DNA of 31,782 nt from a virus (Duplodnaviria > Heunggongvirae > Uroviricota > Caudoviricetes), in the IMG/VR virus record IMGVR_UViG_2645727991_000022. One strand, written 5' to 3'. This document shows positions 25,160 through 25,834 of the stretch, in pieces. Every line of letters begins with the position of its first letter. Within the stretch, counting starts at the first letter, position 1. Position numbers and translations under genes: made by a program. The notes beneath the pieces were generated by a model that had not been told where the DNA came from, ran no database searches, and was given only the letters and a program-made list of their open reading frames with translations.

Positions 25160-25834
25160 TTAAAGCAGGGTGTATACCTTGTCGAATGGTACTGATCTGT
25201 AGAGGTAGCCTTGCACCGCCGTTACTCCACAATCACGTAGTACTGATAGCTCTTTCTGTTGCTCTACTCCCTCTACGATTACATAGGGGCAATACTGCAT
25301 GATGTTCTTCATCAATAAGCTGAAGGTAGGCTTCTGGATTTCCTGACGGTAGAACGCTCTATCAATCTTTACGGCCTCATAGCATCCAGAAGTTAGTGCT
25401 GCGACATTGGCACGGCCTGAACCAAGATCATCGAGGAACAAGCGATAGCCAACGTTTAACAGGGTCTTGAGTACTGGATGATTGATCCCCTGCTCCAAGC
25501 CTTCAAAGTTCTCTGAGATCTCCAACCTGACATACTCCAGCTTATCCAGTAGCTGTATCACCTCTCTATCAAACACACACAGCCTTGCTTGTATGGTGTC
25601 AATGTTAACATTGCAGTAAAGCCGGTTATCCCTGAACCATGCCGCACGTACTTCTATGGCCTGTAGTTGTCGTATTAGTAGTTCCCTCTTCTCTTCAGCA
25701 TCCATAGCCATGATGAAGTACTTACTGTTCAGTACTTGCATACCTTCACTATGAAAGCGGGTTAATAGTTCACAGCCTACGAACTGGCCTGAAGTTGTCA
25801 TGATTGGTTCTGCTATGAAAGTAGTGGTAATCAT
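25160..25834 (-). CDS. EAL-domain protein (c-di-GMP phosphodiesterase-like, stand-alone)
   Basis: 224 aa with EAL-domain signature positions in order: ELLTR (EAL-x-R), LEISENF (E..E), DDLGSG (DDFGTG-like), KIDRAF (K-x-D-x-x-F), EGVEQ (EGVE) and QGYLYRSVP (QG[YF]). AAGGGA lies 9 nt upstream of the ATG. Confidence 0.8.
   Translation of the reverse strand: MITTTFIAEPIMTTSGQFVGCELLTRFHSEGMQVLNSKYFIMAMDAEEKRELLIRQLQAIEVRAAWFRDNRLYCNVNIDTIQARLCVFDREVIQLLDKLEYVRLEISENFEGLEQGINHPVLKTLLNVGYRLFLDDLGSGRANVAALTSGCYEAVKIDRAFYRQEIQKPTFSLLMKNIMQYCPYVIVEGVEQQKELSVLRDCGVTAVQGYLYRSVPFDKVYTLL

Follow-up and report, generated by a model that had tools for sequence, protein, structure and literature searches.

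The stand-alone EAL proteins that enterobacteria carry form a subclass already described, in which active phosphodiesterases of c-di-GMP, a cyclic dimer of guanosine monophosphate, such as PdeH occur together with enzymatically dead members that bind FlhD; the dead ones have been transferred on plasmids, and few c-di-GMP elements have been reported on phages (PMC10333796). Here, we analysed an EAL-only gene encoding 224 amino acids (aa) on a 31,782-nucleotide (nt) stretch of DNA from a member of the Caudoviricetes (IMG/VR record IMGVR_UViG_2645727991_000022; the whole stretch is called the window below). The protein is an uncharacterised addition to this known subclass and not a new kind of protein, and its gene is carried as an accessory by a temperate, siphovirus-like prophage. 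The protein is also the closest intact relative of the flagellar regulator STM1697 of Salmonella Typhimurium. Judging by its sequence, the protein probably acts in the main as an active c-di-GMP phosphodiesterase of the STM1697-like branch, to which we assign a probability of about 0.6.

A single EAL domain fills the protein, as an earlier sequence-only reading of this stretch had proposed: Pfam model PF00563 covers residues 9-212 with an E-value of 3.3e-22 and 79.5 bits (cutoff 31.3). For comparison with active and inactive EAL domains, the protein was aligned with MAFFT together with E. coli PdeH, YdiV (from the K-12 record), STM1697 (the sequence of the PDB entry) and 89 full-length stand-alone EAL representatives drawn from a library of 1.84 billion proteins. 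Twelve positions of this alignment (residues 22, 26, 77, 105, 108, 135, 136, 156, 158, 188, 191 and 208) were read as a signature. The window protein shows ERNEEDDKDEEQ, the majority pattern of intact EAL-only proteins, with canonical residues at 12 of the 12 positions. The corresponding signatures are EHNQEGDKDGEQ in STM1697, where the Arg position of the ExLxR motif is occupied by His as it is in YdiV, EHNLEGNMDGDQ in YdiV and EVNEEDDKAEEQ in the active PdeH, the last deviating at two positions and being further from the canonical pattern than that of the window protein.

Pairwise alignments with HMMER led to the same picture, as the motifs of TBD1265 (2r6o) and YahA (4kie), which are active and for which a structure has been solved, face the same residues in the window protein. 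The motifs ELL, ExxE, DDLGSG, KIDRAF, EGVE and QGY named by the sequence-only reading were all located by MAFFT, HMMER and family conservation, with none of the catalytic residues substituted, and the contrast it had drawn with YdiV-type dead regulators was confirmed, the window protein keeping residues that YdiV has lost. Since the active site is fully intact, the protein should not be filed as a dead regulator of the YdiV/STM1697 type.

The family was then followed in a protein collection, which returned 314 clusters at E <= 1e-5; conservation was counted on the best 120 of them, using 90%-identity cluster representatives. These best 120 are 79-100% identical to the window protein, nearly all exactly 224 aa long, and originate from Enterobacter, Klebsiella, Cronobacter, Raoultella and a few E. 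coli. Among the 12 catalytic positions, nine are invariant and the remaining three at least 97% conserved, and over the entire protein 96 of 224 positions (43%) are invariant. The match of the catalytic motifs is not due to chance. Furthermore, comparison with an 81%-identical allele gave dN of 0.105 and dS of 0.8, corresponding to a dN/dS ratio of 0.13.

If the gene is expressed, c-di-GMP would be bound via R26 and the region of Q208/G209, with Mg2+ or Mn2+ coordinated by E22, N77, E105, D135 and D136, and would be hydrolysed to pGpG using K156 and E188. The c-di-GMP pool of the host would then fall, with less matrix and fimbriae being produced and the YcgR motor brake being released. Expression, which may fall in the lysogen, upon SOS induction or together with packaging, might be driven by a conserved motif of the gene's own upstream region, by the adjacent, probably LexA-controlled divergent promoter or from the packaging operon.

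The structural comparison places the protein close to the dead regulators. An AlphaFold2 model based on an alignment of 85 sequences reached a predicted local distance difference test score (pLDDT) of 94.4 and a predicted template modelling score (pTM) of 0.91, and every top Foldseek match to it was an EAL domain, in agreement with an EAL (beta/alpha)-barrel fold. By far the best PDB sequence match is STM1697 (5hxg; E-value 1.8e-42, 36% identity over 219 residues, gapless), followed further down by YdiV at an E-value of about 1e-17 and by active EAL domains at about 1e-8. Template modelling (TM) scores in Foldseek were 0.88/0.93 for STM1697, with a root-mean-square deviation (rmsd) of 2.0, and about 0.9 for YdiV (3tlq), as compared to 0.72-0.83 for active enzymes, with rmsd of 3.2-4.5.

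Several of these and further observations weigh against catalysis as the main function. The model superposes better on the dead regulators than on the active enzymes, and STM1697 and YdiV neither bind nor hydrolyse c-di-GMP and inhibit the flagellar master regulator via FlhD (PMC5622320). In a rough neighbour-joining tree, the window protein and two relatives stand beside the group that holds STM1697, and the surrounding clade mixes intact and degenerate members. Of these two relatives, one (P0121, 60% identical) adjoins a phage lysozyme gene and is intact save for R26 replaced by K, and the other (P0122, the nearest relative at 56% identity) is degenerate and lies in a phage context of the same kind. 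The N-terminus is about 30 aa shorter than in PdeH and in canonical EAL domains, and an assignment as a PdeH orthologue was rejected, the score of 108 bits to the NCBIfam equivalog model NF008617 falling below its cutoff of 190. Moreover, loop 6 reads DLGSGRAN and departs from DFGTGYSS or, more widely, DFG(T/A)GYSS. Finally, literature searches returned no study or assay of this prophage EAL family.

The canonical form of loop 6 in EAL domains is DFGTGYSS, and Phe stands at the position of the window protein's Leu in 62 of 91 aligned EAL-only sequences (the 89 representatives, the query and the E. coli references). Loop 6 of the window protein, DLGSGRANV, resembles that of the active PdeH, DFGTGMANF, with the shared pattern G-x-A-N-x-x-A-L. 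For the phosphodiesterase activity expected by the sequence-only reading, the outcome is divided: the complete catalytic set agrees with it, and the nearest characterised relatives in both sequence and fold are dead FlhD-binding regulators whose contact residues are mostly kept.

The strongest competing explanation, which we nevertheless consider unlikely, is that the protein works mainly in the manner of STM1697, by binding to a protein of the host. The helix of residues 161-181 and L137 would attach it to FlhD or to a different partner, for example an EAL dimer of the host, and FlhD4C2-dependent flagellar transcription would be blocked; the intact site would serve as a c-di-GMP sensor or 'trigger' by which the binding is modulated, or would have a secondary role. 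Apart from STM1697 being the top sequence match and sharing the best fold scores with YdiV, this explanation draws on the contact surface itself. The 11 FlhD contacts of STM1697 are V115, L116, L136, V147, F160, K167, L172, L173, K175, H176 and Y180, and mutation of F160, L172 or L173 abolishes binding (PMC5622320). Seven of the 11 are identical in the window protein (L136, F160, K167, L172, L173, K175 and Y180), among them the central F160 and L173. STM1697 L136 is matched by L137, the loop-6 Leu of DDLGSG. Of three polar contacts, K167 and K175 are kept, and L116 is conservatively replaced by I; against binding stand the changes of H176 to N and of V147 to T. The pattern G[LI]L[VT]FK[LV]LK[NH]Y is confined to the clade of the query, STM1697 and a handful of others, whose members share 6-8 of the 11 contacts as compared to 0-5 elsewhere among the EAL-only representatives.

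For the query alone, however, the enrichment of the interface (7 of 11 at an overall identity of 36%) is marginal, with P of about 0.06. Ordinary EAL domains, too, frequently have F160 and L173, and in canonical enzymes the equivalent helix is the EAL dimer interface, so that conservation of the helix by itself does not show FlhD binding. Invariance of the catalytic residues would also be unexpected for a protein that is purely a binder.

The same position in related phages bears directly on this question. A scan of IMG/VR with the terminase large subunit (TerL) returned 30 related phage contigs with TerL identity of 63-97%, and in 14 of them tblastn placed a gene of the EAL or EAL-like type at the corresponding site. 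In 13 of these 14, the gene is divergent from a homologue of the neighbouring open reading frame (ORF) orf104 and lies 1-3 kb upstream of the terminase small subunit gene (terS), often with a LexA box between; orf104 homologues were present in 16 of the 30 relatives, 13 of them beside such a slot. Only two slot alleles are intact, L020 with 95% identity and L027 with 40% identity and the full signature. The remaining ones measure 169-194 aa, show signatures such as ERTFDDARDPDQ or ERSME--RNQSQ and have whole barrel segments deleted. Truncated EAL-like genes are carried by L028 (an allele of 189 aa), L031, L033-L036, L041, L042, L045 and L047 (proteins P0271-P0284); two degenerate copies, L029 and L035, have internal stops, and L030 retains a remnant. 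In other relatives the slot holds unrelated small genes or a remnant.

The degenerate alleles are rare (15 clusters), annotated as 'hypothetical' and missed by Pfam, and come from Pseudescherichia where the source names an organism. They lack N77, ExxE, the second Asp, K156 and EGVE. Shared by all alleles are the hairpin at the N-terminus and, most markedly, the C-terminal half, RLDRRF..IFPIILKNLLQYC.KVIV..GVWAVQG, which includes the contact helix of STM1697; correspondingly, the sole PDB match of a degenerate allele is to STM1697 residues 129-222, at an E-value of 1e-17. The survival of degenerate, truncated EAL-like genes in the slot, with P0122 degenerate in the same phage context, suggests that the locus can serve a purpose independent of catalysis and speaks for binding. 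On the other hand, slot alleles without catalysis have lost the catalytic residues and suffered deletions, which suggests that these residues decay fast once dispensable, whereas they are invariant in the family of the window protein.

Host range argues in the same direction. Names of the cluster members show the intact family to be common in Klebsiella and Raoultella, which are not known to have flagella or FlhDC. A target other than FlhD would thus be needed in these hosts, and c-di-GMP, which both genera use, is such a target. An active phosphodiesterase, possibly with a retained partner-binding face, is the reading that accommodates both lines of evidence. In a stronger form, which we regard as tentative and rather doubtful, the protein would be a bifunctional 'trigger' enzyme that combines c-di-GMP hydrolysis with binding of FlhD4C2 or another regulator through the STM1697-type surface, and the series of alleles would record the origin of STM1697-like factors from phosphodiesterases of mobile elements.

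Much less probable is that the substrate is another cyclic nucleotide, such as 3'3'-cyclic GMP-AMP (3'3'-cGAMP) or a further signal of the type used by cyclic oligonucleotide-based antiphage signalling systems (CBASS), and that the phage employs the protein as an anti-defence nuclease. What favours this is circumstantial: the adjoining variable region holds candidate defence genes of the DUF2971 (PDC-S31) and DUF3800 types, and one degenerate clade member, P0126, lies in an island with a SMODS gene. All residues relevant to specificity match c-di-GMP-specific EAL enzymes, the EAL protein had no match in PADLOC, its relatives are c-di-GMP or flagellar regulators, and we know of no EAL enzyme that acts as an anti-CBASS factor. 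Hydrolysis of other cyclic dinucleotides, which the sequence-only reading had offered as an alternative, found nothing in our analysis to support it. As regards the island itself, it is a serine-recombinase island (L050, 2901-12042) that also carries a PAAR/pyocin-S toxin and a CdiI-like immunity gene, the SMODS gene being of CBASS type.

That the gene is inert cargo, recently captured from a host and functionless for phage or lysogen, is hardly credible: it is a GC-rich island in an AT-rich phage, in a variable slot with remnants and pseudogenes (L029, L035, L030) and next to orf71 with its premature stop, but dN/dS is 0.13 over dS of 0.8, the catalytic residues are invariant, and the length of 224 aa is kept in well over 100 clusters from several genera.

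The phage origin of the gene, as first noted from the sequence, was borne out by its surroundings (Table 1), with packaging, head and tail genes on one side and a variable accessory region on the other. Downstream on the same strand follow a 71-aa ORF, terS, a GpA-type terminase large subunit gene, a portal gene and a protease-capsid fusion; further downstream lie tail genes, a tape measure gene, a J-like fibre gene and an endolysin-like gene. The gene forms a local GC peak of 45-47%, compared with 35-40% in its flanks and 37.6% in the window, which suggests capture from a GC-richer genome. As is characteristic of accessory, moron-like genes, it combines a variable slot in a syntenic phage genome with deviating composition. 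A status as core gene of this family of phages was ruled out, since roughly one in two relatives is without it or has other genes in its place.

The prophage resides in an E. coli-type chromosome. In contigs with an identical EAL protein, a large serine recombinase gene, whose product integrates the element, lies at the far end and the element is inside ybhA, next to modC; E. coli G3/10 has a decayed copy at the same site, where RefSeq annotates two ybhA fragments. The two fragments of ybhA, which encodes a pyridoxal phosphate phosphatase, lie at 19628-19849 and 36002-36619 of L048. A complete 280-aa 'pyridoxal phosphatase' of the haloacid dehalogenase (HAD) type is encoded at the prophage end, at window positions 1-843 (+), and apparently replaces the disrupted ybhA. 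The element is known only from draft assemblies, IMG/VR contigs and metagenome contigs: megablast found no match to the region among INPHARED phages, and the region was absent from 5,426 complete E. coli genomes in both near and distant search modes.

With respect to the neighbouring genes, orf71 has an in-frame TGA where the sister phage has Trp, and the frame beyond it is intact to about 24730, as would fit a nonsense mutation that arose recently or, possibly, read-through. For orf104, neither a Pfam nor a PDB match was found. Beside it lies a block of three genes at 26351-27172 (+), 27188-27832 (+) and 27882-29051 (-), which encode, in this order, a DUF2971 protein (PADLOC PDC-S31, E-value 8e-37), a protein of 214 aa that lacks annotation and has a hydrophobic N-terminus, and a protein of the DUF3800 type. 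Since sister prophages carry different genes beside orf104, the block looks like a defence or accessory hotspot. It should be added that HNH or homing-endonuclease-like ORFs (phrog_953, phrog_7363) occur towards the window ends, at 31291-31782 (-) and 2824-3252 (-), the former of which may run past the window.

In the intergenic region between the EAL gene and orf104, about 105 nt towards orf104 hardly vary between phages with EAL proteins of just 81% identity. The region contains a LexA box-like palindrome matching the consensus at 16 of 20 positions, the sole such site in the window (0.03 expected), with a TATAAT hexamer inside it on the + strand. All related phages that were examined have the box at this position despite their wide divergence, L008, L029, L035 and L047 differing by 1-2 substitutions in its core. 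Its distance of 29 nt from the orf104 start and the TATAAT on that strand make orf104 a likely SOS-controlled gene, and orf104 may represent an SOS-controlled switch or antirepressor-like gene.

On the other side, all related phages have the motif AAAAA(T/C)GATCAATTATCAAT..TTA located 30-45 nt upstream of the slot gene, whatever the type of that gene. The element has a conserved layout, an A-tract followed by GATCAAT..ATCAAT..TTA, and about six GATC sites occur in the corresponding region of L027; the element might act as a Dam-sensitive promoter or as the site of a regulator. A scan for σ70 promoters gave a weak prediction on the EAL side and none above chance, the terminator scan returned nothing in the interval from the EAL gene to terS, and the whole window had no Rfam match, hence no c-di-GMP riboswitch was detected in it.

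Table 1. Coordinates in the window of the EAL gene, its motifs and the adjacent features.
Feature	Position	Strand	Remarks
EAL-only gene, 224 aa, ATG start	25160..25834	-	Stop codon 25160-25162; from the ORF list
E22-L-L-T-R26 (ExLxR)	25757..25771	-	Metal-binding Glu of the 'EAL' motif and substrate-binding Arg; invariant in 121 sequences
N77, metal-binding Asn (VNID)	25604..25606	-	From alignment; gone from degenerate sister-phage alleles
E105-I-S-E108 (ExxE)	25511..25522	-	First position Q in STM1697, L in YdiV
D135-D-L-G-S-G140 (DDxGxG, start of loop 6)	25415..25432	-	Leu in place of the usual Phe
K156-I-D-R-A-F161 (catalytic Lys, Asp)	25352..25369	-	From alignments
E188-G-V-E191 (general-base Glu)	25262..25273	-	First position Gly in STM1697 and YdiV
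Q208-G-Y210	25205..25213	-	From alignments
Residues 161-181 (FYRQEIQKPTFSLLMKNIMQY)	25292..25354	-	Helical stretch corresponding to the surface by which STM1697 contacts FlhD and to the EAL dimer helix; best-kept block across all phage alleles
Divergent intergenic region, EAL gene to orf104, 186 bp	25835..26020	.	Pairwise and multi-phage alignments
LexA (SOS) box-like palindrome CACTGTATATAATCACAGTA	25973..25992	.	Upstream of both start codons, 29 nt from that of orf104 and 139 nt from that of the EAL gene
A-tract/GATC motif, proximal copy GCCGATCAATAATTCATTAT (EAL strand)	25860..25879	-	Just upstream of the EAL start
A-tract/GATC motif, distal copy AAAAACGATCATTTTCAACAAGTTAAG (EAL strand)	25921..25947	-	From alignments
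orf71	24896..25111	-	Truncated homologue of a 125-aa ORF of sister prophages
Terminase small subunit	24017..24595	-	phrog_57, E-value 2e-28; shares the strand of the EAL gene
Terminase large subunit, GpA type	22189..24105	-	From annotation
orf104, 104 aa	26021..26335	+	phrog_2100; divergent from the EAL slot

Phage c-di-GMP parts are rarely reported (PMC10333796), and this one is widespread and strongly conserved in Enterobacter, Klebsiella, Cronobacter, Raoultella and some E. coli. If the phosphodiesterase is active, the prophage would gain direct control of the motile/sessile switch of its host and of its matrix and fimbriae, which could affect the escape of virions from biofilms, superinfection by phages with c-di-GMP-dependent receptors and colonisation traits of clinically important hosts. 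Should the bifunctional alternative be true, the phage would couple the level of the second messenger to the control of flagellar and surface genes. What this locus adds to the known subclass is the closest intact relative of STM1697, in a widespread prophage, together with an allelic series from enzyme to truncated EAL-like protein; having both in one slot offers a tractable system for the change from an enzyme to a protein-binding regulator.

Other phages were also searched for such genes. The EAL protein is matched by PHROG phrog_32988, a 229-position profile without function annotation, at an E-value of 5e-32. Most other 'phage' protein matches were discarded because the records hold DNA of the host, either as short 'S.Kent' fragments or as contigs from whole-genome shotgun sequencing; real matches came from the P1-like phages alone. 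P1 variant OP279344 (L053, 2489-3178) encodes a 229-aa EAL-only protein with the full ERNEEDDKDEEQ signature, annotated as hypothetical; its gene lies between a gene for a helix-turn-helix protein and mat, near lxc/bof, ulx and darB, at the locus where P1 normally carries res-mod. In NC_050153 (Ro157c2YLVW; L052, 2489-3088) the EAL-only copy is disrupted at its C-terminus. P1-like phages thus carry an intact EAL-only gene independently of the prophage described here: the P1-type protein is only about 28% identical to the window protein and belongs to a different phage and a different locus.

Among the characterised proteins, STM1697 shares with the window protein the compact EAL-only size of about 220-235 aa and the Leu of DDLG/GDLG; it differs in that R26, E105, D135 and E188, intact in the window protein, are replaced by H, Q, G and G, and in its chromosomal position, flanked by the sap operon and, in the opposite direction and at a greater distance, by fabI and rnb, as compared to a prophage-borne gene. 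YdiV/RflP of E. coli (STM1344 in Salmonella) has the same EAL-only fold and 27% identity, but a strongly degenerate site, and of the key residues of its FlhD interface F155, F181 and A184 are not kept in the window protein and only F168 is (as F161). PdeH (YhjH) resembles the window protein in being a stand-alone EAL protein whose catalytic set is intact and whose loop 6 is similar, and its model is the top match in NCBIfam; it differs in that the identity is only 27%, in its N-terminal extension and in its chromosomal gene, which belongs to the flagellar regulon. Finally, El Mouali et al. in 2017 reportedly described pairs of closely related EAL-only proteins, each consisting of an active phosphodiesterase and an FlhD binder (YE2225 and YE1324). 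These are said to be chromosomal genes, and such enterobacterial pairs show the same split between enzyme and binder as is seen within this single phage locus.

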